Origin: Candidatus Aenigmatarchaeota archaeon
GTDB lineage: Archaea > Aenigmatarchaeota > Aenigmatarchaeia > QMZP01 > QMZT01
NCBI GenBank assembly: GCA_026397315.1
Contig: JAPLVC010000005.1
Location: forward strand, 2,088 to 66,087
Reading direction: 5' to 3'
Length of the DNA stretch: 64,000 nt
The translations under genes and the position numbers were made by a program. The stretch's first letter is position 1. The number at the start of each line of letters is the position of its first letter. Positions 6,953-52,153 of this stretch are shown here, piece after piece. Under the pieces are notes generated by a model. That model saw only the letters and a program-made list of their open reading frames with translations, made no database searches and was not told where the DNA came from.

Positions 6953-8647
6953 TCACATCCTATCGAGTGTGCTTATGCCGAGAAGATTCATGCCTGATTT
7001 AAGAACTAAAGCCACCGCTTCGACTAGCGCCAGTCTGGCGTGTTTCATGTTTTCTTCCGCCTTGAGGACCGGCACGAACTGGTAGAACTCGTTGAACCTG
7101 GTGCAGATGTCGTAGCAGAAATTCGCTATGTAATGCGGCCTCATATCCTCGGCTGCTTTGGCGACTGTTTCAGGGAATTCCGATAGTATCCTGAAAAGAT
7201 GCCTTTCATGCGGTTCCTTCAGGAGCGACATATCGAAAGCGCTTGGCCTTTTTCCTGCGTTTTTAAGTATGGAGCGAGCGCGCGCATATGTGTAAAGCAG
7301 GTATGGTGCTGCATTGCCCTCGAAATCGAGGGCGCTCTTCCAGTCGAAGATTATGGTCTTGCTTGGAGACGTCTTGATCATGTCGTATTTGAGCGAGGCG
7401 AGGGCTATCGTTCTCGAGGCTTCGCTGAGCTCGCTGCTTTTCATTTCCTTGTTTCTCTTCTCGGTTTCCTCGTGCGCGTGCTTCTCCAGCTCGCTCAGCA
7501 CGTCTTCGTAAAGTATGACCACGCCCTCCCTAGACGCCATCTTGCCCGTGGGAAGGTTGACCAGTTCATAACACAGGTGGTGGCTCTTGCCTGCGAGCGG
7601 CGAGCCCATCAGCTCAAATGTCTTGAACAGCTGCTGAAAATACATCTTCTGCTCTGAGCCGACCACGTGTATGGATTTGTCTATCTTGTATTCTTTCGCC
7701 TTGAGTTCGGAAAGCCCGAGGTCCTTGGACGAATAAAGGGGGGTGCCGTCGGATTTAAGCAAAAGGTAGATACCGAGGCCGTATTTTTCCAAGTCGATGA
7801 GTATCGCACCCTCACTCTCCTTGGCCACGCCTTTTTTCAGCAGCTTTTTGGCTATCTCCGTCCCGGGCTTCTCGGTCTCGCTCTCGAAATAGAAGCGGTC
7901 GAATTTTATGCCAAAACTCCTGTAAATTGTGTCAAAATAATCAAGGCTCCACTGCCTCGTTTCTTTCCATATTTTTGCAAGCTCGTGGTCGCCCGCGTAA
8001 ATTTTCCTGTTTATTTCGTTCACTTCTTCTTCCAAACCAGCGTCGTCCTTTATTTTTTTGCTGGCTTCAGCATATACGGTTCCGAGCCATTTTCCCCTCT
8101 CGCCTTCAGGGCCTTTGCCGCCATGGAGTTTGGTGAGTCCCCAGACGCATCTCGCGACATGCGGCCCTATGTCTCCCTGGTAATTGACGCGTATGACCTT
8201 GTATCCGGAAAATGCCAGTATTCTTGAAAGCGACTCGCCAAGGCACGCCGTCCTTATGTGGCCGATATGGACGGCCTTGTGCGTGTTGAAGTGGCAGTAT
8301 TCCACCATCACGTTCCCTTTCGCTTGGCCGCGTCCGAAATTCTCCTCGTCCTTCAGCACGGTCTCGACTGTTGATTGACCTATCTTGTCCCAGTTCGCGA
8401 AGAAATTGACATAACCGCCCTTCTGCTCGGCCCGCGTTATGAGGCCGTGCGGCTTCATCTTATCCGACATTTCCATCGCTATCGCATCGGGAGCTTTCCT
8501 GAATTTTTTCGAAAGCATGAAACACGGGAAAGCCAGGTCGCCCATGTCTTCCGGAGGCTTTTCCAGCGTTATCTCTTCGCTTTTCAGGCCTGTCTCTTTC
8601 GTCAGCGAAGCCACGACCTCTTTCCTGAATTCGTCAAAACTGCTCAT
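6953..8647 (-). CDS. argS: arginyl-tRNA synthetase
   Basis: 564 aa. It has a class I HIGH-type motif (HKAVHIGHIRTA), a GKMASREG (KMSK-like) motif and a DALR-like anticodon-binding C-terminus. Confidence 0.95.
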   Translation of the reverse strand: MSSFDEFRKEVVASLTKETGLKSEEITLEKPPEDMGDLAFPCFMLSKKFRKAPDAIAMEMSDKMKPHGLITRAEQKGGYVNFFANWDKIGQSTVETVLKDEENFGRGQAKGNVMVEYCHFNTHKAVHIGHIRTACLGESLSRILAFSGYKVIRVNYQGDIGPHVARCVWGLTKLHGGKGPEGERGKWLGTVYAEASKKIKDDAGLEEEVNEINRKIYAGDHELAKIWKETRQWSLDYFDTIYRSFGIKFDRFYFESETEKPGTEIAKKLLKKGVAKESEGAILIDLEKYGLGIYLLLKSDGTPLYSSKDLGLSELKAKEYKIDKSIHVVGSEQKMYFQQLFKTFELMGSPLAGKSHHLCYELVNLPTGKMASREGVVILYEDVLSELEKHAHEETEKRNKEMKSSELSEASRTIALASLKYDMIKTSPSKTIIFDWKSALDFEGNAAPYLLYTYARARSILKNAGKRPSAFDMSLLKEPHERHLFRILSEFPETVAKAAEDMRPHYIANFCYDICTRFNEFYQFVPVLKAEENMKHARLALVEAVALVLKSGMNLLGISTLDRM

Positions 8648-9036: not shown

Positions 9037-9648
9037 ATGAAATCCAAAGCTTTCGGCTCCATTTCAGTATCTGAAAAGGTGCGGCTCTATATCAAGGGAA
9101 AGCCGTACCTGCAGGAAGCGCTTGAAAGAAACATAGTGAACTATTCAGCGCTCGCGAGAGTAATAGAAGGGGAAATGGGCGGTAAAAAATTCGACGCCGT
9201 AAAGGCGGCTCTCATGAGGCTTGGCAGGAGATTCGCAAATGAAAGAAGGAATGCCGAGCAGAGGATGCTGAAAGTCGTCAGGTCTAGCAGGCTTGAAATG
9301 CGGGACAGGATAGCCGTAATCATCTCGGGTGGCAGGCTGGACGTACCTGCCATAGCTTCCGCTAAAAGCGCAAGCGGTTATACCTATATAATAGATGAGC
9401 GCGATGCGGATAACGTCAAAAACAGAAATCTGCTTAAAGTTCAGACTGGCCTGAGCATGATAACCATCATCAGTCAGGAGTCACTAGAGGACACGCCCGG
9501 CGTGATAGCCTATTTTCTGTCGTCGCTCGCGGCCGAGAACATAAACGTCGTCGAGTTCGTTTCCTGCTACAGGGACACGTTGCTGGTTTTCAAGGACGCG
9601 AACGTGACAAAAGCGATAGAAATATTGTCCGGGAATCTAAAGGTGTGA
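9037..9648 (+). CDS. ACT domain-containing regulatory protein
   Basis: 203 aa. The C-terminal 70 aa (LSMITIISQESLEDTPGVIAYFLSSLAAENINVVEFVSCYRDTLLVF) fit the ACT fold pattern, and an N-terminal helical/HTH-like region precedes it. Confidence 0.6.
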   Translation: MKSKAFGSISVSEKVRLYIKGKPYLQEALERNIVNYSALARVIEGEMGGKKFDAVKAALMRLGRRFANERRNAEQRMLKVVRSSRLEMRDRIAVIISGGRLDVPAIASAKSASGYTYIIDERDADNVKNRNLLKVQTGLSMITIISQESLEDTPGVIAYFLSSLAAENINVVEFVSCYRDTLLVFKDANVTKAIEILSGNLKV

Positions 9649-9650
9649 TT

Positions 9651-10040
9651 ATGATAAATTACGAGCGTGCTCCGGACATAGACAAGCGTGCGCGTGAAAT
9701 AATAGCGAAGCTCGGCATGGAGCACATCGACCTGTCGCGCGTGTGGTTCATGCGCTCGCGCGGCTCGCAGAGTCGGTATACGTTAGCGCGGATACACGTC
9801 CTCCCTCGCATAATGCAGAAGGCGCTCGGCATTCCTACACAGTATGTCATAGAAGTAATAACGGAAAAATTCGACCGGCTACCATACGACGACCAGACCA
9901 AGACAATAATACACGAGCTGATGCACATACCAGAGTCGTTTGGTGGCGGCTTCCGCCATCACAGGCCTTTTGTCAACAAGAAAACAGTTGAGGAAATGCA
10001 CAGAAAATACACCGGCAGAAAAAGGCTGTTCGATTTCTGA
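9651..10040 (+). CDS. predicted zinc metallopeptidase (SprT/Wss1-like, HExxH)
   Basis: I take the ATG at 9651, with AAGGTG upstream, because the ORF-track start at 9645 is GTG. It carries an HELMH zinc-binding motif in a roughly 130-aa archaeal putative-metallopeptidase architecture. Confidence 0.7.
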   Translation: MINYERAPDIDKRAREIIAKLGMEHIDLSRVWFMRSRGSQSRYTLARIHVLPRIMQKALGIPTQYVIEVITEKFDRLPYDDQTKTIIHELMHIPESFGGGFRHHRPFVNKKTVEEMHRKYTGRKRLFDF

Positions 10041-12770: not shown

Positions 12771-14495
12771 CTACAAATCGGTTCTCTGAACAATGGAATC
12801 CTTTATATCTACATTCTTGTCTTTTTTCCTGATTTTTTCCCCTATTTTTGAACGTTGAACTATAGAATCTATTATGTTTATGGTCTCGCTGACCTCGATT
12901 TTCTGTATTTCAGTCGCCAGCGACATGGCTATGACCGTGTATTTGACTATGTCGGCAATCTTTTCTGCCAGATTTTCAAGCTCTTCGTCCTTAGATGAGT
13001 ATAGCTTGAAGGCGACGTGAACAAGACCGTCTTCTTCTCTGAGCACGCAGGTAAGAAGGTAAGTGTCGCCGTCGCTGGACTCGCCGGAAAAAAGATACAG
13101 CCTTTCATTGTCGAACTCGTGACCTGCGACCGGCGCGAAATCCCTGCATTCCTCCAGGACGTGGCTCGAAACCGTCTTTATGTTGGTGCCTTTTAGCGTG
13201 TATCCTTTTATCGCCGAGCGGAAGCCTGCCTTCATTTTCACATACTCGTGCTCGCTTATTTCTTTCGGATGCATGAAGTTCTGCAGGAACCTCCTGAATT
13301 TCTGGGTATAATTGAGCTTGTCCATGTTCTCTTTACTGGCCTGGCCGTCGCTATCGGCTATCGTAGTCGCCTGCTTCAGCGACTCTTCGAGGACGAATGG
13401 CTCCATATCCTTGATGAAATTTCTGCCGCACAGGTCGTGGAAGCTTACCGTGGGTTTGAGCACCGTTTTGCCCGTGACCGTCGGCAGTATTTTGAAAACG
13501 AAGCCCTTCTCCTCTCCGGGATTTATCTTGTCTATTTCGTAACCGCTCACCGGGTCGACCTTGATTTCAACCGGAAAATTCATGACCAGGTTTACATCAC
13601 CTATGGGTTGCCTGGAATTATTGGAGACGGAAACCACGAAATATGATTTCTTGCCGACTTCCAGCTTTTCCCTGAGATACGGCCTCACATCGATGTTCGG
13701 AATGACGCACATTCTCGGCGGCTCTATCTCGCTTTCCATGCGTTCGCCCCTGGCGTTTTTCCATTCAACTTTGGCGTAAAGCGGCTTCGCGTTTTCGGAA
13801 GGTGTGATCATGTAGCTGAGCGCTCTGGACTCGCCGGGCTTCATGGAGGCCACGTTCTCGAGGACGTTCGCCTTTACGCCGAGTATCCTTATATCACTGA
13901 GTGTCTCTTTCGTGTCGTTTCTCAGCGTGAGTGTCATTTTTACTTTTTCGCCTTCCTTTACCACGTTGCTTTCGCAGGTATGGCTTATGCTGAGATGCGG
14001 GGCGATTCTGGCGATGTCATGTATCCTTTTTTCTATCTCCTCGCTGTACTCGATATCGAGGGATTTTTTGTAGTTTTTGATTGCCAGATTGTAATCTCCC
14101 ATCTTCTCGGCCGCCTGCCCCATCAGGTTGTAGCACCACTGGATCGCATAAAGGGAGCCGGCGTGAGTGAAATAGTCTATCGCCTTGTTTGCGAAGCTTA
14201 TGGTATTGTTTAAGTCGCTGAAAGAGAACGAGTAAAAAGCAGCGGACTTGTATGCCCAGCCCACGTTGAAATCCTTGCCCAGCTTGAGGTTGCACTGCAC
14301 CTCTTCAAGACAGAAATCTACCGCCCTTTTGTCGTTTATCGATTCAGCCAGTCTGGCGGCCTCCTGATAAATTTCAGCCGCTTCAGCGCACTTGCCTGAC
14401 TTGGCCATTTTTTCCGCTTTTTTGGCCAGGTTTTCCATTTCTTTGGCAGTCTTTTTTATTTCCTTCGCATTGGCGGGGGACTGTTGTTTGTCCAT
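12771..14495 (-). CDS. cytoplasmic TPR/MIT-like plus tandem beta-sandwich (CARDB/DUF11-like) protein, third gene of the ESCRT-III/Vps4 operon
   Basis: 574 aa with no signal peptide. The N-terminal roughly 170 aa are helical-repeat (AEIYQEAARLAE, YNLMGQAAEKMGDYNLAIKNYKKSL). Two Ig-like segments follow (VKEGEKVKMTLTLRNDT..., KKSYFVVSVSNNSRQPIGDVNLVMNF...). The C-terminus carries a duplicated DSIVQR(S/T) motif. Its start is 38 nt downstream of the vps4 stop. Confidence 0.7.
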   Translation of the reverse strand: MDKQQSPANAKEIKKTAKEMENLAKKAEKMAKSGKCAEAAEIYQEAARLAESINDKRAVDFCLEEVQCNLKLGKDFNVGWAYKSAAFYSFSFSDLNNTISFANKAIDYFTHAGSLYAIQWCYNLMGQAAEKMGDYNLAIKNYKKSLDIEYSEEIEKRIHDIARIAPHLSISHTCESNVVKEGEKVKMTLTLRNDTKETLSDIRILGVKANVLENVASMKPGESRALSYMITPSENAKPLYAKVEWKNARGERMESEIEPPRMCVIPNIDVRPYLREKLEVGKKSYFVVSVSNNSRQPIGDVNLVMNFPVEIKVDPVSGYEIDKINPGEEKGFVFKILPTVTGKTVLKPTVSFHDLCGRNFIKDMEPFVLEESLKQATTIADSDGQASKENMDKLNYTQKFRRFLQNFMHPKEISEHEYVKMKAGFRSAIKGYTLKGTNIKTVSSHVLEECRDFAPVAGHEFDNERLYLFSGESSDGDTYLLTCVLREEDGLVHVAFKLYSSKDEELENLAEKIADIVKYTVIAMSLATEIQKIEVSETINIIDSIVQRSKIGEKIRKKDKNVDIKDSIVQRTDL

Positions 14496-14533
14496 AAGAA
14501 AAATTGAACGCTAAACTTTATAATGTCAGCGTC

Positions 14534-15637
14534 TCAGACGCTGAGGTTTTCCTTCCAGTCATCGTATCTCTTTATCAGTTTCTGGCTCACGGTCTTCTTT
14601 ATTTTTGAAAGCGCGTATGTAAAATCGTCTTTCGTCAACGGCCTGTATTTAATGGCGTATTTCTCTACCTGTGTCGCTGTCATATCTTCGAGATTCGGGT
14701 TCTGCTCGCGTATCATGAACATTATGGCCTCGCGACATATGCTGGCTATATCCCTTCCGGAATAGCCCTCGCTTATTTCTGCCAGACCATCCGCGGTGAT
14801 GCCGGAGAGCGACGAGCCTTTCACGTGTATTTCGAATATCTTCCTTCTCGAATCAACATCAGGCAACGGCACGTATATCTTCCTCTGGAACCTCGATATC
14901 ATAGCGTCATCGAGATCCCATGGCCTGTTCGTGGCGGCCATTATTATGACCTTCTCGTCCTTCTTGGTCGAGAAGCCGTCTATCTCTACGAGCAGCTGGG
15001 ATATGACCCTTCTCGTCGCCTCGTGAACGCCAGCTTCCCTCGTGATCATTATTGAGTCGAACTCGTCCATGAAAATAAGCGAGGGCTGGTTTTTTCTTGC
15101 CTTGTCGAAAAGCGCGCCTATGATCTTCTCGGATTCGCCATAATATTTGGAGAGGAGAGTCGATGTCTTCGCCTCGAAAAAATTCGCTTTTAGCGTGTTG
15201 CTGGCCGCCTTGGCTAGCAGCGTTTTTCCGGTTCCCGGAGGACCGTAAAGCAGTATCGTGCGCGGCACCTCCACAAACGCCGGTTTGCCGACGATCATGG
15301 GGAGGATTATAGATTCCCTGACCTCGCGCTTCGCTTCCTTGAGGCCGCCTATGTCCTCCCACTTCGTCGTGGGCTTTTCGTAAACTATCATCTTGTCTAT
15401 TGGCTGCTCGGACTTCGCCTTTCCAGCGCCGCTAACGCCTTCGAACTGGTCTGCCGAATGGAACAGCGACTCTGCCTCGTTTCTGGGAGATATGTAAGCC
15501 AGACGCCTGTAAATAGATGCGGCAACCTTGTAATGCGTTGTCGCCTGCTTTGATTTGCCGTCCGCTTCAAGCTTCCTTGCAGTATCCAGTTCGTGCTGGA
15601 GCTGCTGTTTCAAAAGCGACTCTCTCAGTTCGCCCAT
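14534..15637 (-). CDS. vps4: Vps4/CdvC-like AAA+ ATPase (meiotic clade) with an N-terminal MIT-like domain
   Basis: 367 aa. It has an N-terminal three-helix region, Walker A GPPGTGKT, Walker B LIFMDEFD, and the SRFQRKIYVPLPD block characteristic of the Vps4/katanin/spastin clade. Confidence 0.85.
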   Translation of the reverse strand: MGELRESLLKQQLQHELDTARKLEADGKSKQATTHYKVAASIYRRLAYISPRNEAESLFHSADQFEGVSGAGKAKSEQPIDKMIVYEKPTTKWEDIGGLKEAKREVRESIILPMIVGKPAFVEVPRTILLYGPPGTGKTLLAKAASNTLKANFFEAKTSTLLSKYYGESEKIIGALFDKARKNQPSLIFMDEFDSIMITREAGVHEATRRVISQLLVEIDGFSTKKDEKVIIMAATNRPWDLDDAMISRFQRKIYVPLPDVDSRRKIFEIHVKGSSLSGITADGLAEISEGYSGRDIASICREAIMFMIREQNPNLEDMTATQVEKYAIKYRPLTKDDFTYALSKIKKTVSQKLIKRYDDWKENLSV

Positions 15638-15656
15638 CAGACCACCAGAAGAAAAA

Positions 15657-16268
15657 TCACTCTGTGTCCTCTTCCTTCTTTTCCTCTGTTATTGACTTCG
15701 CTTTCTCGCCGGCCATGCGCATTGCCGTTTCTTCGTCTACCTTTTCCAAATCGTTTATGGCGTGCATGAGCTCCTGCGATTCCTCATCGACAAGCATCTG
15801 CTGTTTGCCGAAGACCCGTTCCAGCTTTTCCTTTACCTTGTCCAGGCGGCCTTCTTCCAACGCTTCCCTGACGTCGGTATCGGTAAGCACTTCACTCAGC
15901 CTGTCCATGTCCGTGTCAAGAATTTCCTTCGCGATGGATGAAATCTGTTCACTCTTCTCGCGCTGTTTCATGGCCTGGACAAGCAGTATGAGCTGCAGTT
16001 CGCGGAGAAAATGAGACGCTTCAATCTGCTTCGTGCGCGACTCGAGGCTCAATGCCTTGATCTTCTGCACGTTCAGCATCTTGAGCGTGTTGGGCTGCCC
16101 TTTGGATTCGAGCATGAGCTTCTGGATTTTTTCGGCAATGCCCCTGAGGTCGTCAGAAATCCTCTCAATTTCCTTTTCTATTTTGAGGCGTTCCTTGAGC
16201 AAATCGTTGTCTTTTATGGAAAAAATGTCCTTGCCGAATCTCGATTTGATGAATTTCTTGAAATCCAT
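15657..16268 (-). CDS. cdvB: ESCRT-III (Snf7/CdvB)-like coiled-coil protein
   Basis: About 203 aa from the ATG at 16268 (the ORF-track start at 16277 is GTG, and GGTGA lies 6 nt upstream of the ATG). The N-terminal helical hairpin is basic and the C-terminus is acidic (EEKKEEDTE). An MDRLSEVLTDTDVREALEE segment resembles the Snf7 alpha4-5 region. The gene sits 19 nt upstream of vps4. Confidence 0.6.
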   Translation of the reverse strand: MDFKKFIKSRFGKDIFSIKDNDLLKERLKIEKEIERISDDLRGIAEKIQKLMLESKGQPNTLKMLNVQKIKALSLESRTKQIEASHFLRELQLILLVQAMKQREKSEQISSIAKEILDTDMDRLSEVLTDTDVREALEEGRLDKVKEKLERVFGKQQMLVDEESQELMHAINDLEKVDEETAMRMAGEKAKSITEEKKEEDTE

Positions 16269-16313
16269 CGCTCTCACCTTGATATTTATTTTGACTGTCT
16301 TAAATATAAAGGT
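16269..16313. promoter_or_regulatory. 45-bp shared divergent control region with two interdigitated TATA-like boxes
   Basis: The sequence is CGCTCTCACCTTGATATTTATTTTGACTGTCTTAAATATAAAGGT. ATATTTATTTT (16282-16292) lies 22-32 nt upstream of the plus-strand ATG at 16314. TTTATATTTA on the minus strand (16301-16310) lies 32-41 nt upstream of the cdvB ATG. Confidence 0.6.
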
Positions 16314-19300
16314 ATGAAAGGTTTTCTGCTATCGCTCGACGCAATTGTGGCGATAACTTTGTTGCTATCGGTGTCGCTTTTTTTGGCCGGAATTTCGTTC
16401 ACGTATTCGACACCCGAACTGCGCTATCAACGCTATTACTATGCCGGCAAGGACGTCGCCACGCTTTTTCAGGAGGCCAAAATGAGTTCCGTCTCCGGCG
16501 TCGTCAACCTGACCAAATACAACCTCACCCAGGAGGAGATGAACAGGACAATACTTGACGTGATAGGTTCTTTCTGGGCCAGCGGCAACATGAGCGCGGC
16601 CAGTAATCTGACAAGGGACATTTTCAGTGAGGTTTTAGGAAACACTGGTCTCAACTACGAGGTTTCTTTCAACGACGAAACGATATACGCCAGCAACGAC
16701 TCATATTCGGATTTTGTTGCCAGGCTGTCTACAATCGTTTCAGGTTATGAAAAAACGAAGCCCGTCAATGGTTATCTTGCGAAGGTTTATGTCACAAAAG
16801 TCTCGAAAACCAATTCGGAGTTCATATATTTCGGTGGCTACGAGGGAGACGGCAACATAACCAAGATCATCACACTCCCCGTTGACGTGAACGTGACCGG
16901 GGCTTACCTTGAAATGAACGTCGGCAACAATTTCATGCTTTACATCAACGACCAGCCTGCGGGGGCATATTCCAAGAGTGCTGCCAATTTCTCGGCGGAT
17001 AACTGGACCATATGCTCGAAGGCGAATCCAACATACTGTTCATACTTTGCGGCCGGCCAGAACATAATACAGCTGAATTTCACCACGAATCAGAGCACCT
17101 ACATAGGTGGTGGCTATCTCAAGGTCACTTACAAAACTTCCGAGCTTACGGAATACACAACCAGCGACAATGCCAGCGATTACTACGATTTTCCCGGCAT
17201 ACGAGGCATTATCAACCTTTATTCGTCTTTCTACGTGCCGGGCACGCTGAAAAACATAAGCGCCAGGCTGCATTACAACAACAACCTCAGTCTCAACGGC
17301 CAGGGCGTGCCGGTCTATTTTGTTATCGGCTCAAAGGAGATATACAGGAGCAACGCAACTGGCGAACAGGTAATTGAAATCCCGGAGAAAAACATATCCG
17401 ACGCTTTCGGTGGCAAAACAAATCTTACAGACAAACTCAGCAACGCGACCATACCCATACGCTTCGGCACGGACACGTTCGCCTTTACAAGCGGCGAAGG
17501 GACGAGCGATTCAGTTCTTATAACAGACGTGTCAGGCAGCATGGGCGACTCTTGTGATGTCGAAACTTCGTCATGCCTTCACACTGACTGTAACACCGCA
17601 AGCGGTTGCCAGAACTACAGGATAGACGTAGCAAAGGATGTTGACAAAAACTTCGTCTCTATGGTTTTGAATTACACAGGCAACAGACTGGGATTGGTGA
17701 GCTATACAACGTCCACAGAAAGGACGCATTATCTTAGCAACAACAGCGTGTCTCTAAGCACTCAAATAGATAAGTATACGGATATAGATAACACCTGCAT
17801 TTCATGTGGTATAGCCGATGCGACAAGCATGCTTCAGAACAACACAAAAGCTTACAATAGATTAATTACAGAAAAAGCGACGTGGTTGTATAATACGAGT
17901 TTTCCGAATGAAACCCCACCAATAATAAACGGGACTTCATGGAATGAACATAATTACACAGATACGGGATGGGACGAAGGTCAGGCCATACTCGGTTTTG
18001 GTTCAGTGGACACTGATATAGGAAATAACGGAGGTGATTATTATTTCAGAAAACACTTCAACATCAGCAACGTCGATACCATAGAATCGGGTGAATTATA
18101 TGTTCTCTCGGATGATAATGCGGAAATTTATCTTAACGGCCATATCATAGATAACGATACCCAGCAGCACAATGGACAATACTGGAATAGGGGTGAACAA
18201 ATAATTTTTTCTGACAACTTCGAAAACTATTATTCTACCGGCCAGAACAGGCTGTACTCTAACGAAATAAACACGACGCCCGGATATTGGATTGTTAATG
18301 GTACCCCATCGGCCGATAAGGAAGTTTTCATAATGGCCGATGTTTCAATGTATCCGGCAAGTAGCGGAAATGACGTACTTGTTTTTAGGGATATGGACTC
18401 ATATGGTTATGCCGAAAAAAAAATAAATCTCACCGGTGAGGAAAATCTTATGCTCTCATATTGGTGGAGAATGGGACCGAATTCGATTGAAAGTGGCGAA
18501 TATGCGAACGTGCAAATATGGGATGGCAGCTGGAAAACTGCCAGAATGTACAACGGCAGCCAATTTTATGGTCCTGCGCTTAGAGGTGAAATAAATCTTT
18601 CCGGATATAATATGGTCGACAACTTCACGATAAGATTTGGCTTAAGGTCGAGTGATGATGATGAAAGGTTTTACATTGATGATCTTGAAATAAAAAGGGG
18701 AGTGATACTGGTAAACAACTCGTATTTCAAAAATGGAGATAATGTGATAGCGGTAAAGCTGCGCAATGATGACAGTGTGAATGCGGGTTTCGATCTTTCA
18801 CTTAACGTGACATCGAAAAGATACAAGGCAATGCTGGTCATGAGCGACGGGTTGGCAAACGAGTGTTTACCTAGTGGAGCGACTTGTTCCAATTATAACG
18901 CAAGCAACCAAGCAATAATGAAGGCATGCGAAGCGAGAGATAACTTCAGCATAAACGTCTATGCTGTGGGATTCGGCTCAGGTGCAAACATGACTACTTT
19001 AAGCAAAATAGCGTGCTGGAACTGCTCAGCAAACAATTGGATTTCCGGATGCAGCAGGTATTACAACAGCACCAATGCCGATGAGCTTGAAAAAATTTAT
19101 AGGGACATAGCAAGAGACATAGCCAACGCCAGCTATGCCGGCCAGCTCTTCAACTTCACCGGCAATGTGTCCCTGAACAACATTTTATACACGGACTCTT
19201 ACATATATTTCGATTACACGCCAGTTGTCAGGACGCCGGAATACGGGGAGATAACCCTTAATTTCGAATCTCCGCGCCTGAGCGCATCCACAGGCAACAA

Positions 19301-20060
19301 CATGACGACTGACAACGAAACCGGGACCAAGGAAGGCTGGTTCTTCATACCAGGCGATACTGAAGTCTCGACGGAAGTGCTTGATTCAAAAATAACATCA
19401 TACTCATCGTACTACTGGACGGACAGGCTTTGGGTCAACTCGTCCAGCACGCCTAATCAGAACTGGACGCGTGTATACTGGCTCGCAAACTATTCGAGCG
19501 ATTACGAAAAGCTGGGAGACCCATATATCGTGCAGATACCGCCCAACCTTCTTACAGCAAATGGCAACAACTCATTTAAAATAGGCACTGGACTTCGTCC
19601 GACTCCGCTGTCCGGGGGCAAAGGCGCCTCGCCGGACGACAGGATAATTTACACGCTGGGTATAAAAGGCATAAGCCTCACGCAATACAGCGACGTTTTT
19701 GCCAAGGCCAAAGGTTCGACTGTCACTATATATTACGATGCGAACGGCGATAACATCGCGGACAGCTCTGCCGTCGTGGAGGTCGGACCGGAACCAGGTG
19801 ATAATTTCGACCCCATGAACGACTCGATAGACAACGGCTTCATGAAACTCATGGACAGGATGAATTTCATGAGCGATGTTAATTCAGGCGTAGTCGATTT
19901 AAACTACACGACATCAGGGCCAAGCGGAACCGGCGACGGCTCATTCGGCAATCCTGTCGACCTGGAAATAACCGAAGACGTGAATTTCAATTCGGATTTC
20001 ATATCACAAATATCATCCATGTGGGGGCCCGCTATAATGGAGGTAAAAATATGGGGATAA
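16314..20060 (+). CDS. giant pilin-like (class III signal peptide) surface protein with a vWA domain and dense N-glycosylation sequons
   Basis: 1248 aa from the ATG at 16314. The 5' extension to 16011 overlaps cdvB on the opposite strand. The N-terminus MKG/FLLSLDAIVAITLLLSVSLFLAG fits a prepilin-peptidase (K-G then hydrophobic) signal. The vWA MIDAS motif is LITDVSGSMGD, with MLVMSDGLANEC and VYAVGFGSG. A jelly-roll-like block reads GGDYYFRKHFNIS...LSDDNAEIYLNGH. I count about 52 N-X-S/T sequons by eye. Confidence 0.85.
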   Translation: MKGFLLSLDAIVAITLLLSVSLFLAGISFTYSTPELRYQRYYYAGKDVATLFQEAKMSSVSGVVNLTKYNLTQEEMNRTILDVIGSFWASGNMSAASNLTRDIFSEVLGNTGLNYEVSFNDETIYASNDSYSDFVARLSTIVSGYEKTKPVNGYLAKVYVTKVSKTNSEFIYFGGYEGDGNITKIITLPVDVNVTGAYLEMNVGNNFMLYINDQPAGAYSKSAANFSADNWTICSKANPTYCSYFAAGQNIIQLNFTTNQSTYIGGGYLKVTYKTSELTEYTTSDNASDYYDFPGIRGIINLYSSFYVPGTLKNISARLHYNNNLSLNGQGVPVYFVIGSKEIYRSNATGEQVIEIPEKNISDAFGGKTNLTDKLSNATIPIRFGTDTFAFTSGEGTSDSVLITDVSGSMGDSCDVETSSCLHTDCNTASGCQNYRIDVAKDVDKNFVSMVLNYTGNRLGLVSYTTSTERTHYLSNNSVSLSTQIDKYTDIDNTCISCGIADATSMLQNNTKAYNRLITEKATWLYNTSFPNETPPIINGTSWNEHNYTDTGWDEGQAILGFGSVDTDIGNNGGDYYFRKHFNISNVDTIESGELYVLSDDNAEIYLNGHIIDNDTQQHNGQYWNRGEQIIFSDNFENYYSTGQNRLYSNEINTTPGYWIVNGTPSADKEVFIMADVSMYPASSGNDVLVFRDMDSYGYAEKKINLTGEENLMLSYWWRMGPNSIESGEYANVQIWDGSWKTARMYNGSQFYGPALRGEINLSGYNMVDNFTIRFGLRSSDDDERFYIDDLEIKRGVILVNNSYFKNGDNVIAVKLRNDDSVNAGFDLSLNVTSKRYKAMLVMSDGLANECLPSGATCSNYNASNQAIMKACEARDNFSINVYAVGFGSGANMTTLSKIACWNCSANNWISGCSRYYNSTNADELEKIYRDIARDIANASYAGQLFNFTGNVSLNNILYTDSYIYFDYTPVVRTPEYGEITLNFESPRLSASTGNNMTTDNETGTKEGWFFIPGDTEVSTEVLDSKITSYSSYYWTDRLWVNSSSTPNQNWTRVYWLANYSSDYEKLGDPYIVQIPPNLLTANGNNSFKIGTGLRPTPLSGGKGASPDDRIIYTLGIKGISLTQYSDVFAKAKGSTVTIYYDANGDNIADSSAVVEVGPEPGDNFDPMNDSIDNGFMKLMDRMNFMSDVNSGVVDLNYTTSGPSGTGDGSFGNPVDLEITEDVNFNSDFISQISSMWGPAIMEVKIWG

Positions 20061-40756: not shown

Positions 40757-41041
40757 ATGCAGGGGCCTCCAACCATGGGGCTAGGCCTACCGTACCTTCG
40801 GGTGGCAAACGGTCTTCACGGCCGGTTGTAGTTTGCGGATGGTTTTGCGTTGAACTGCAAAGCCCTGACTGCCAACGTAGAAGCCTTGTCCTGCAGGATC
40901 ATCTTCATGACGAACCGGGTCAGGGTCGGAAGACAGCAGCTCTAAGTCATGTCGGCGGTGCTTGCAGGGTAGCAGGGTGGAGAAGGCAATCAGGTTAACT
41001 TTCGGTTTTGTGCAAAGTCTACCGCAAACATGTCCCTGCAT
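40757..41041 (+). ncRNA. ffs: signal recognition particle RNA (archaeal 7S RNA)
   Basis: This GC-rich island lies between protein genes. It has an Alu-domain-like 5' element GGGGCTAGGCC, and a helix 8 signature CAGGGTCGGAAGACAGCAGC (40918-40940) with the opposing GGTGCTTGCAG. The 5' ATGCAGGGGC pairs with the 3' GTCCCTGCAT. Ends are approximate, within about 10 nt. Confidence 0.85.
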
Positions 41042-51388: not shown

Positions 51389-52153
51389 TTATCTGCCGTA
51401 AAGCCAGTTGAAAAGCCTGTAGCTCAACGGTATTCTCGGTGTGTAAGTTTCTCCTATAAGGCTGGCCGCTATGGCCCTTATGTGCTGCGCCGCTGGGGAA
51501 CGCGGGTTGTAAACGACCACTGGCTCTTTCATGGCTATCGCCTTTCGTACTTCCCTGTCTTCCGGTACTGTACCTATTATAGGAAGGCCTATCATCCTCT
51601 CTATATGTTCTGCCGGGAGCTCGTGTGTTTCGTTTTTTACCCTGTTGAGAATTATGCCAAGGTTGTGTGTTGAATACTTGCTTGCCAACATGACAAGCTT
51701 GAATGCGTCCGTGACTGCCGGGAGCTCCGGGTTTGTCACTGTCAATAGCTCGTCGGCCGCTTCCATGGCTGCCATGGATTCCTTGCCCAACCCGGCTGGA
51801 GTATCGATGAGTATGAAATCATGCCCTTCGAGCAGCTTGTAAAGCACGTCGATATAATGATGGGATTTTATGTTCTTTGTTTTTCTCAAGGATATGTCTG
51901 CAGGTATGACCTTGAAGCCGGTTTTATGTGTGTAAAGAACGTCGCTGACCTTTGCCCTGCCTTCAAAAACATCATGTATGGTTTTAGGATACAAATGCAT
52001 GCCGAGATGCAGTGCCAAATTCGATGTTGTCAGGTTGGCATCGACAGCCACTACCGATTTGCCATATTGCGCCAAAGCCGCGGCGAGATTCGCGACGAGC
52101 GTCGTTTTGCCCACTCCGCCTTTGCCAGAAGAAATTGCTATTATGCGTGTCAT
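51389..52153 (-). CDS. minD: MinD/ParA-family P-loop ATPase
   Basis: 254 aa with the deviant Walker A SGKGGVGKTT and DTPAG (Walker B). Confidence 0.9.
   Translation of the reverse strand: MTRIIAISSGKGGVGKTTLVANLAAALAQYGKSVVAVDANLTTSNLALHLGMHLYPKTIHDVFEGRAKVSDVLYTHKTGFKVIPADISLRKTKNIKSHHYIDVLYKLLEGHDFILIDTPAGLGKESMAAMEAADELLTVTNPELPAVTDAFKLVMLASKYSTHNLGIILNRVKNETHELPAEHIERMIGLPIIGTVPEDREVRKAIAMKEPVVVYNPRSPAAQHIRAIAASLIGETYTPRIPLSYRLFNWLYGR

Follow-up and report, generated by a model that had tools for sequence, protein, structure and literature searches.

Here we describe a three-gene locus from a Candidatus Aenigmatarchaeota archaeon (assembly GCA_026397315.1, contig JAPLVC010000005.1), which encodes a small helical protein, an AAA ATPase and a multidomain accessory protein, and which we read as a probable minimal ESCRT-III/Vps4-type membrane-remodelling module. 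All positions refer to the 64,000-nucleotide (nt) stretch of this contig that was analysed (hereafter, the window). Three minus-strand open reading frames (ORFs) run in one direction and encode proteins of 203, 367 and 574 amino acids (aa) with gaps of 19 and 38 nt, as an earlier interpretation made without database searches (the sequence-only reading) had described. The motifs quoted in that reading (LLYGPPGTGKT, SRFQRKIYVPLPD, IIDSIVQRSKIG and IKDSIVQRTDL) are all present in the translations. The ORF of the small gene extends over 15657-16277 and would yield 206 aa from a GTG codon; the ATG at 16268, which gives 203 aa, is the start common to homologs in the family alignment. None of the three proteins has a hydrophobic stretch able to span a membrane. 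All three have near-identical homologs in metagenome-assembled genomes that carry the label Candidatus Aenigmarchaeota (a DPANN phylum), and the window is a piece of an Aenigmarchaeota chromosome. Coordinates of the genes, spacers and domains are collected in Table 1.

The spacing of the genes and the signals between them bear on how the locus may be transcribed. Given the short first spacer and its GGTGG element, the 203-aa and ATPase genes are most likely carried on one transcript. The second spacer holds a TATA-like element (ATTATAAAG) about 22-30 nt upstream of the ATG of the 574-aa gene, and a GCGTC-TGA-GACGC hairpin straddles the ATPase stop codon, so a separate promoter for the third gene is possible. 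The corresponding spacer is only 3-12 nt long in several relatives. The third gene may thus be reached by read-through and may also have its own promoter or start.

The 367-aa protein has one AAA domain, and its assignment to the Vps4 clade in the sequence-only reading is borne out by several comparisons. Pfam AAA (141.8 bits), AAA_lid_3 (38.8 bits) and Vps4_C (PF09336; 31.9 bits against a gathering score of 21.3, E=1.3e-7) all match above their gathering scores. The AAA domain has the Walker A motif GPPGTGKT and a pore loop, SKYYGESEK, that aligns with SKWMGESEK of Vps4. Just downstream of the domain, ISRFQRKIYVPLPD aligns ungapped with RRRFERRIYIPLPD of Vps4, whereas a two-residue gap is needed to align it with p97. 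ISRFQRKIY likewise aligns ungapped with RRRFERRIY of yeast Vps4, and the two extra residues that Cdc48 carries before the second arginine (RRFGRFD and RPGRLD) are missing. Identity to yeast Vps4 is 38% over 324 aa (the yeast query was verified at 966 bits over 437/437 residues of 5uie). The sole long gap in this alignment falls at Vps4 residues ~360-390, which we take to be the Vta1-binding beta-domain insertion.

Scored on one scale with phmmer, the ATPase is closer to Vps4 (201.5 bits) than to the p97 D2 (171.6 bits) or D1 (167.3 bits) domain, and six relatives give the same order. The Vps4 score exceeds both p97 domains by 30-50 bits in six of the seven ATPases tested and by 18 bits in the seventh (L063; L numbers denote fetched loci). 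In the PDB, the best single-AAA-domain match is katanin p60 (218.9 bits), ahead of PAN/Rpt proteins (<206 bits) and of the two p97 domains (165.5 and 170.4 bits); yeast Vps4 itself, used as a PDB query, ranks the Cdc48 matches in the same way. The N-terminus is harder to place. Pfam MIT does not match that of the window ATPase, and it matches two of 18 orthologous N-termini (best E=8e-9). When a profile of these 18 N-termini was searched against the PDB, the best natural match was CdvC/Vps4 (4lcb, E=0.003), followed more weakly by the Sulfolobus Vps4 MIT domain (2v6y, E=0.013), chitin synthase 1 (2mpk), calpain-7 (8uc6), 2w2u and the SKD1 MIT domain (1wr0). We call this match weak but consistent, because TPR and other helical-repeat proteins are mixed in with these entries and designed TPR proteins outscore every natural match. 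Altogether, we regard it as reasonably well settled, from these sequence comparisons, that the protein is a Vps4/meiotic-clade ATPase with an MIT-like domain and not a Cdc48 or PAN protein.

The 203-aa protein, which lies directly upstream of the ATPase, was described in the sequence-only reading as a Snf7-like coiled-coil protein with a basic N-terminus and an acidic C-terminus. Its predicted structure starts with a short helix (aa 3-11). Next comes a long hairpin, whose arms (aa 20-55 and 60-103) meet at an invariant KGQ tip, and then a hinge-like D-x-D-K/R-L motif that is conserved in the family (aa ~118-126). The protein is predicted to end with a conserved, acidic helix, DLEKVDEETA..A..K; no extra domain follows. 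The charge asymmetry is indeed pronounced, with a net charge of +8 and an isoelectric point (pI) of 9.8 in the N-terminal half and -15 and 4.4 in the C-terminal half. It is also a property of the family: among 19 aligned sequences, the N-terminal half carries +5 to +13 in 17 (+2 and +8 in the other two; pI 8.7-10.1), and the C-terminal half carries -7 to -19 (pI 4.1-4.7) in 18, distant relatives included, with one paralog from L062 at 0 and pI 6.8. An AlphaFold2 (AF2) model built from a 29-sequence alignment (predicted local distance difference test score, pLDDT, 72) shows hairpin helices of 36 and 44 residues and then six short helices. The top Foldseek match of this model in the PDB is Sulfolobus islandicus CdvB, at a non-significant E=0.18, and 11 of the 50 best PDB matches belong to the ESCRT-III superfamily (CdvB first, and CHMP2A, CHMP3, CdvB2 and Vipp1 as well).

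Profile-profile comparison points in the same direction. We aligned the family by hhalign with a CHMP/Snf7 reference alignment made of six hand-entered sequences and 21 animal CHMP2A/4B sequences, and obtained P=6e-4 over 125 columns in local mode (probability 28%) and P=2.8e-5 in global mode (probability 48%). The alignment is co-linear and brings into register the N-terminal F-G-K motif, helix 1, the K-G-Q hairpin tip and the D-x-D-K/R-L motif, the last of which we liken by eye to DIDKVDE of Snf7. Reversed-sequence controls gave P=0.17-0.4, and the true score was reached by none of 60 single-column-shuffled and none of 60 block-shuffled decoys (z ~5.6-5.9 against the block-shuffled set). The same comparison with PspA/Vipp1/LiaH, for which the alignment was hand-entered and unverified, gave no similarity (P=0.32). 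The fold model, the charge pattern, the profile-profile similarity, the position upstream of the ATPase and the repeated linkage to it agree, and on these grounds we think it quite probable that the 203-aa protein is a very divergent member of the ESCRT-III superfamily, the remaining probability falling to an unrelated hairpin partner of the ATPase. The basis is indirect; no Snf7 or PspA model matches directly. The C-terminal helix, compared by eye, fits the MIT-interacting motif (MIM) consensus poorly, for both MIM1 and MIM2. A profile search of 1.84 billion representative sequences returned 26 relatives of the small protein, none with a Snf7 domain. Stray matches of the family to Rpb4, GapR/UPF0335 and EF-hand proteins were judged to be noise, and labels from the Joint Genome Institute (JGI) such as 'membrane protein YgaE' were dropped because the protein has no hydrophobic segment.

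In the survey of relatives that the sequence-only reading had suggested, we took one genome per species, which gave 61 loci, almost all labelled Aenigmarchaeota; 65 loci were fetched overall, and 55 were informative, with enough downstream sequence to judge. The small gene and the ATPase gene are co-directional neighbours, with the ATPase downstream, in 36 of these 55 loci. The ATPase lies within 200 nt in 24 and at 0.2-2.5 kb on the same strand in 12, and the other 19 have none. Loci without the linked ATPase belong mostly to one clade with ~60% identity, which indicates that the pair is ancestral in the phylum and was separated in one clade. The third gene follows the pair in 15 of the 36 loci, and unrelated genes follow in the other 21. 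With the first two genes co-directional in 36 loci and the third following in 15, the arrangement is not a chance juxtaposition. Small-protein relatives at 19-25% identity also adjoin Vps4-type ATPases on two other, unrelated families of metagenomic contigs. One is L062 (2054-6429 of a contig from JGI metagenome 3300033153), where six genes stand in a row. Two of them encode AAA ATPases: one carries Vps4_C, and in the other MIT (30.9 bits against a cut-off of 30, scanned at full length), AAA and Vps4_C are all above their Pfam cut-offs. The row also has a PP2C phosphatase gene and two paralogous genes for small-protein relatives of ~195 aa. It is reminiscent of the 'Main' clade of Makarova et al., whose ESCRT loci are kinase/phosphatase-associated. 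In the other family (L063/L064), the pair adjoins an MscS channel gene.

Two further observations come from the surveyed loci. In the clade without a linked ATPase (L017-L023, L025, L029 and L031; ~7000-7600 in each), the ESCRT-III-like gene is full-length, with ~60% identity and no ATPase within 7 kb, and it is followed by a small membrane-protein gene and then by a gene of ~810 aa that looks by eye, unscanned, like a class I aminoacyl-tRNA synthetase. Conserved small ORFs (cluster c17) downstream of the ATPase in distant loci were rejected as antisense shadows of a convergent gene of ~470 aa (cluster c28), which we take from its sequence, unscanned, to encode a CCA-adding enzyme.

The 574-aa protein has a narrower distribution than the pair. 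It has 26 detectable homologs, all of Aenigmarchaeota type, and the fetched loci contain 11 full-length and four shortened versions, always directly after the ATPase and co-directional with it, at identities down to 34%. An iterative hidden Markov model (HMM) search of the 65 fetched loci found no distant versions beyond these 15 obvious ones. The shortened versions (L003:8804-9307, L006:8798-9304, L007:5579-6088 and L010:8776-9324) are 167-182 aa long and retain just the SNAP-like TPR domain, having lost the DSIVQR tail together with the Ig and C-terminal domains. Since the same downstream neighbours stand within ~90 nt, we read the shortening as a clean deletion. The protein is therefore a lineage-specific accessory confined to one Aenigmarchaeota subclade. 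The sequence-only reading had proposed, as one possibility, a lineage-specific partner that replaces CdvA: the lineage specificity holds, whereas a general replacement of CdvA does not, because the gene occurs in one subclade, is absent from most loci with the pair and is reduced to the TPR domain in four genomes.

The domain structure proposed earlier for this protein (a TPR/MIT-like region, two CARDB/DUF11-like Ig segments and a duplicated tail) agrees with Pfam and with the family alignment. At the N-terminus, Pfam SNAP (PF14938) scores 21.6 bits on the window protein against a cut-off of 25, over profile positions 13-149 of 282; of 20 family members, 14 match the first half of SNAP (best E=4e-7). 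The models TPR_12, TPR_1 and TPR_2 match at up to 1e-12, and there is a weak Pfam MIT match too. For this region, profile searches of the PDB gave the Hop/STI1 TPR domain (~1e-5), gamma-SNAP (2ifu, E=0.009) and alpha-SNAP (E=0.065). An AF2 model from the single sequence, of mean pLDDT 47 and usable for the TPR domain and the first sandwich only, matched alpha-SNAP in Foldseek at E=2.5e-4; this match and the others (Hop TPR, and arrestin, TRAP and macroglobulin sandwiches) are hints only. For the sandwiches, DUF11 is found in 12 of the 20 members (best 2e-7), Transglut_C in 13 and NPCBM_assoc in 11. The region at aa ~395-535 (about 140 aa) has no Pfam or PDB profile match and is modelled at pLDDT <50.

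The most conserved residues of the entire 574-aa protein lie in its tail, in INIIDSIVQRSKIG and KDSVVQRT; in the window protein, the tail peptides are ETINIIDSIVQRSKIG and DIKDSIVQRTDL. Columns N540, I541, D543, S544, V546, Q547, R548, I551 and G552 of the first copy and D566, S567 and Q570 of the second are invariant, and the pattern D[SET][IVL][VIL][QN][RK] occurs only at these two sites in the six-frame ORFs of the window. The repeats, which the sequence-only reading had offered as possible MIMs, are nearer to the pore-binding Vps2 peptide DEIVNKVL than to the MIM consensus. Vps2 peptide-8 (DEIVNKVL) is an ESCRT-III segment that lies as a beta-strand in the Vps4 pore, and a C-terminal tail is where Vps4 is thought to start translocation (PMC5716660, PMC12254338). 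The two share the pattern D-x-I-V-(N/Q)-(K/R), and DSIVQR(S/T) stands in a flexible-looking C-terminal tail; unlike the Vps2 peptide, it is on the accessory protein and not on the ESCRT-III-like protein. We treat this likeness as a lead, as it covers six residues recognised after the fact and the Vps4 pore binds many sequences.

Table 1. Genes, spacers and predicted domains of the three-gene locus, in window coordinates.
Feature	Position	Strand	Basis or remark
203-aa gene	15657..16268	-	soluble helical protein, putative very divergent ESCRT-III
19-nt spacer, 203-aa gene/ATPase gene	15638..15656	-	Shine-Dalgarno-like GGTGG 4 nt before ATPase ATG
367-aa ATPase gene	14534..15637	-	Vps4/CdvC-type: MIT-like N-terminus, one AAA domain, lid, Vps4_C helix
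MIT-like three-helix N-terminal region (ATPase aa 1-70)	15428..15637	-	profile search of orthologous N-termini
AAA domain (ATPase aa 128-258)	14864..15256	-	Pfam AAA
Vps4_C C-terminal helix region (ATPase aa 313-363)	14549..14701	-	Pfam PF09336
38-nt spacer, ATPase gene/574-aa gene	14496..14533	-	TATA-like element and hairpin
574-aa gene	12771..14495	-	soluble multidomain accessory protein, one Aenigmarchaeota subclade
TPR domain, SNAP-like (574-aa protein, aa 19-153)	14037..14441	-	Pfam SNAP/TPR, PDB profile search
First Ig-like beta-sandwich, CARDB/DUF11 type (aa 166-257)	13725..14000	-	Pfam; strands in AF2 model
Second Ig-like beta-sandwich, NPCBM_assoc/Transglut_C type (aa 274-344)	13464..13676	-	Pfam
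C-terminal alpha/beta region (aa ~395-535)	12891..13313	-	no detectable relative
Tail motif copy 1, DSIVQRS (aa 543-549)	12849..12869	-	family alignment
Tail motif copy 2, DSIVQRT (aa 566-572), two residues from C-terminus	12780..12800	-	family alignment

Among described systems, the locus is closest to the minimal Thermoplasmata-type loci and to the Meth_adaptin and Halo_adaptin loci. Most archaeal ESCRT systems have the ESCRT-III gene directly upstream of vps4, and Makarova et al. (2024) used this position to call a derived ESCRT-III in haloarchaea (PMC11188069). Like the locus described here, the Thermoplasmata-type minimal systems have an ESCRT-III-type gene directly upstream of an MIT-Vps4 gene (with the N-terminus only MIT-like in our case), no CdvA and one extra clade-specific gene, and the hosts of minimal euryarchaeal systems mostly also have FtsZ (PMC11188069). 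The Aenigmarchaeota locus differs in that its ESCRT-III-like protein is too divergent for Pfam Snf7, its extra gene encodes a TPR/Ig multidomain protein rather than the arCOG07400 beta-barrel, and its host belongs to a DPANN phylum, which that survey does not discuss. The Meth_adaptin and Halo_adaptin systems of the same survey share with it cytosolic Ig-like-domain proteins encoded beside Vps4, and the ESCRT-III partner of Halo_adaptin is likewise so derived that it was identified mainly by its position upstream of the ATPase. In contrast to those systems, the Ig domains here are of CARDB, DUF11, NPCBM_assoc and Transglut_C type rather than of adaptin families; the 574-aa protein has no adaptin-appendage match in Pfam or in Foldseek on the weak model. 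There are no wH, SPFH, GOLD or CetZ-like genes at this locus, and the ATPase is MIT-like where that of Halo_adaptin is Cdc48-N-like.

The crenarchaeal CdvABC system also places a CdvC/Vps4-type ATPase downstream of an ESCRT-III-type gene. It differs from our locus in having CdvA, which does not adjoin here, and the 203-aa protein has neither a winged-helix extension nor a proline-rich MIM2, while the ATPase falls short of the CdvC cut-off. The absence of an adjoining CdvA-like gene had been stated in the sequence-only reading, and the flanks are indeed a pilin-like VWA protein and a small membrane protein; beyond these flanks, no CdvA model was run on the window. Beyond ESCRT systems, the N-terminal 150 aa of the 574-aa protein match the first half of alpha/gamma-SNAP, the adaptor of the AAA ATPase NSF, and the 574-aa gene likewise accompanies that of an AAA ATPase, one that would work on helical bundles and beside which the 574-aa protein could act. 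The likeness covers about half of the SNAP fold and stays below the Pfam cut-off in the window protein, and the other 420 aa (Ig domains, C-terminal domain and tail) have no counterpart in SNAP.

Altogether, we consider that the locus is a minimal ESCRT-III/Vps4-type membrane-remodelling module of an Aenigmarchaeota archaeon with a probability of roughly two in three (about 0.68), a reading in which polymerisation, membrane binding, the contact between MIT-like domain and tail, and the cellular role itself are what we infer from the families involved. Under such a model, the basic hairpin and short N-terminal helix of the 203-aa protein would bind membrane and polymerise, while its acidic conserved C-terminal helices would hold it soluble and recruit the ATPase. 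The ATPase would dock on this tail through its MIT-like domain and draw subunits through its pore (loop KYYGESEK), remodelling or recycling the polymer. The 574-aa protein would be a later accessory whose SNAP-like TPR domain, being the part that is always kept, likely contacts the pair; its two cytosolic Ig-like sandwiches and C-terminal domain could bind cargo or a site, and the twin DSIVQR tail is a candidate for contact with the ATPase, at its pore or MIT-like domain. We speculate that the module serves vesicle formation, membrane repair or remodelling at the cell surface or host contact more probably than primary cytokinesis, because DPANN archaea are reported to divide with FtsZ (PMC7617429). 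No reading frame of the window contains the FtsZ signature GGGTG[ST]G, a search confined to this part of the genome. As the sequence-only reading had noted, the window does contain a MinD/ParA-type ATPase gene (51389-52153, minus strand; Walker A KGGVGKT).

A more elaborate version would make the locus a three-part sorting device, in which a SNAP-like adaptor joins the ESCRT-III-like polymer to the Vps4-type ATPase, the Ig domains bind cargo or a component of a surface structure, and the DSIVQR tail threads the pore as a pseudo-substrate or initiation tag. We hold this to be a long shot. If true, cargo choice would be coupled to polymer remodelling, as a prokaryotic analogue of adaptor-driven ESCRT sorting that arose independently in DPANN, and the conserved divergent placement of pilin-like/VWA adhesin genes beside the small gene would suggest that the host-contact surface is what is remodelled.

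Several findings weigh against the module reading, and most can be set beside a rival account of the same gene. The 203-aa protein might be an unrelated helical-hairpin or coiled-coil substrate or adaptor of an MIT-AAA ATPase, in the manner of CdvA-like hairpins or of the coiled-coil protein (arCOG08707) that thaumarchaea encode upstream of cdvC. It has no direct model match of any kind: Pfam and NCBIfam returned nothing for it or for eight distant relatives, even at E<=1; searches of the PDB with the single sequence or two family profiles (phmmer/hmmsearch) found no ESCRT-III sequence; and a CHMP/Snf7 HMM run on 128 family members scored forward and reversed sequences equally. All Foldseek PDB matches of its model have E>=0.18, with many unrelated helical bundles among them, and the modelled region 111-153 forms four short helices, not the usual alpha3/alpha4. 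The hhalign probabilities stay at 28-48%, below 50% in both modes, and come from a shallow reference profile in which, of the six hand-entered sequences, only CHMP2A was verified (exact). Hairpin proteins upstream of vps4 that are not ESCRT-III have, moreover, been described by Makarova et al. (PMC11188069). Yet the CHMP/Snf7 match is co-linear over most of the length and beats 120 of 120 decoys; its size, its basic and acidic halves, its F-G-K motif and its K-G-Q tip all line up with those of CHMP proteins; and ESCRT-III structures are over-represented among the best fold matches. We therefore judge an unrelated hairpin to be unlikely, and prefer a divergent ESCRT-III protein. Linkage to the ATPase is not universal either: in 14 loci where 3 kb or more was seen downstream, the small gene has no ATPase nearby, so the small gene can persist without close linkage.

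For the ATPase, the rival is a Cdc48/PAN-like unfoldase, or a katanin-like severing enzyme acting on an FtsZ/CetZ-type filament, instead of an ESCRT-type remodeller. The NCBIfam CdvC model (NF041006), aligned over positions 22-367 of 370, scores 228.7 bits against an equivalog cut-off of 650, and the ATPase is thus not an ortholog of crenarchaeal CdvC in NCBI's sense; the CDC48 (235 bits) and PAN (221 bits) models score about level with it, so the family cannot be told from HMM rank alone. The single-domain PDB match that scores highest is katanin p60, and the class assignment comes from same-scale score comparisons, not from a tree. What makes an unfoldase or severing enzyme very unlikely in our view is that the protein has one AAA domain, an MIT-like N-terminus rather than a Cdc48-N or OB/coiled-coil one, a Vps4_C helix and none of the two extra Cdc48 residues, that Vps4 outscores both p97 domains in all seven ATPases tested, that yeast Vps4 itself ranks Cdc48 matches alike in the PDB, and that the conserved neighbour is ESCRT-III-like. 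The third gene, for its part, could be a mere neighbour within one subclade, such as a generic TPR/Ig scaffold under a promoter of its own: 21 of the 36 loci with the pair lack it, the window's second spacer has the TATA-like element, and TPR and CARDB/DUF11-type Ig domains are generic. This we find doubtful, since the gene stands directly downstream of the ATPase and co-directional with it even at 34% identity, with very short spacers in several relatives; what survives shortening is a SNAP/MIT-like domain, and SNAP proteins are known to act as adaptors of AAA ATPases; conservation peaks in a duplicated motif that resembles a known Vps4 pore ligand; and Ig-like partners are known in other archaeal Vps4 loci.

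If the module reading is correct, it would change the picture of ESCRT systems in DPANN archaea. One review finds ESCRT-III in all major archaeal lineages except DPANN (PMC7619361), and another describes ESCRT proteins as absent from DPANN (PMC10117752). The survey text of Makarova et al. makes no mention of DPANN, and the part of its supplementary table that was available has Vps4 (arCOG01307) entries from three DPANN genomes (ARMAN-5 and two Woesearchaeota) but none for ESCRT-III from DPANN (PMC11188069). Our literature search found no paper that ties Aenigmarchaeota to ESCRT components. What would be new here is an ESCRT-III/Vps4-type system in a phylum thought to be without it, with an unusually divergent ESCRT-III-like protein and a new accessory architecture. 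A conserved pair of Vps4 and ESCRT-III-like proteins across 61 Aenigmarchaeota genome loci would fill the DPANN gap, would support the presence of such a module in the last archaeal common ancestor, and would be an unexpected membrane-remodelling tool for very small, probably host-attached cells. The small-protein family would illustrate how far ESCRT-III sequences can drift past current models, and the accessory protein offers a directly testable idea, namely that its tail mimics a Vps4 pore ligand.

The locus sits in a core chromosomal neighbourhood, and we saw no signs of mobile elements around it. Ribosomal protein L15e, CutA, inositol monophosphatase and an amino-acid-kinase-family gene, which we take to be UMP kinase, lie on one side; on the other, past the large VWA gene, are a VanZ-like gene, a KH-domain gene and an RLI/ABCE1-type ABC ATPase. 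There are no paralogs of the 203-aa or 574-aa protein elsewhere in the window.

The VWA-domain protein (~1250 aa; 16314-20060, plus strand) begins MKGFLLSLDAIVA..., a start that resembles a type-IV-pilin/class-III signal. Its gene is divergent from the ESCRT-III-like gene, with 45 AT-rich nt (16269-16313) between the start codons; a longer ORF starting at 16011 was dropped in favour of 16314, since it would run antisense into the small gene and is probably spurious. Most Aenigmarchaeota loci, also those where the ATPase is not adjacent, retain a gene for a pilin-like surface protein divergent from the small gene, and in more distant loci the divergent neighbour is another protein with a KGF signal (e.g., L039:4525-6213).

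Elsewhere in the window, ARAGORN found no tRNA genes in the whole 64 kb, and an archaeal signal recognition particle (SRP) RNA lies at 40759-41039 on the plus strand (Rfam RF01857, 106 bits). A 131-aa protein (9645-10040, plus strand) matches the Pfam 'putative phage metallopeptidase' family (PF18894, 82 bits) with housekeeping genes around it, and its gene shares 4 nt with the end of the preceding ACT-domain gene.

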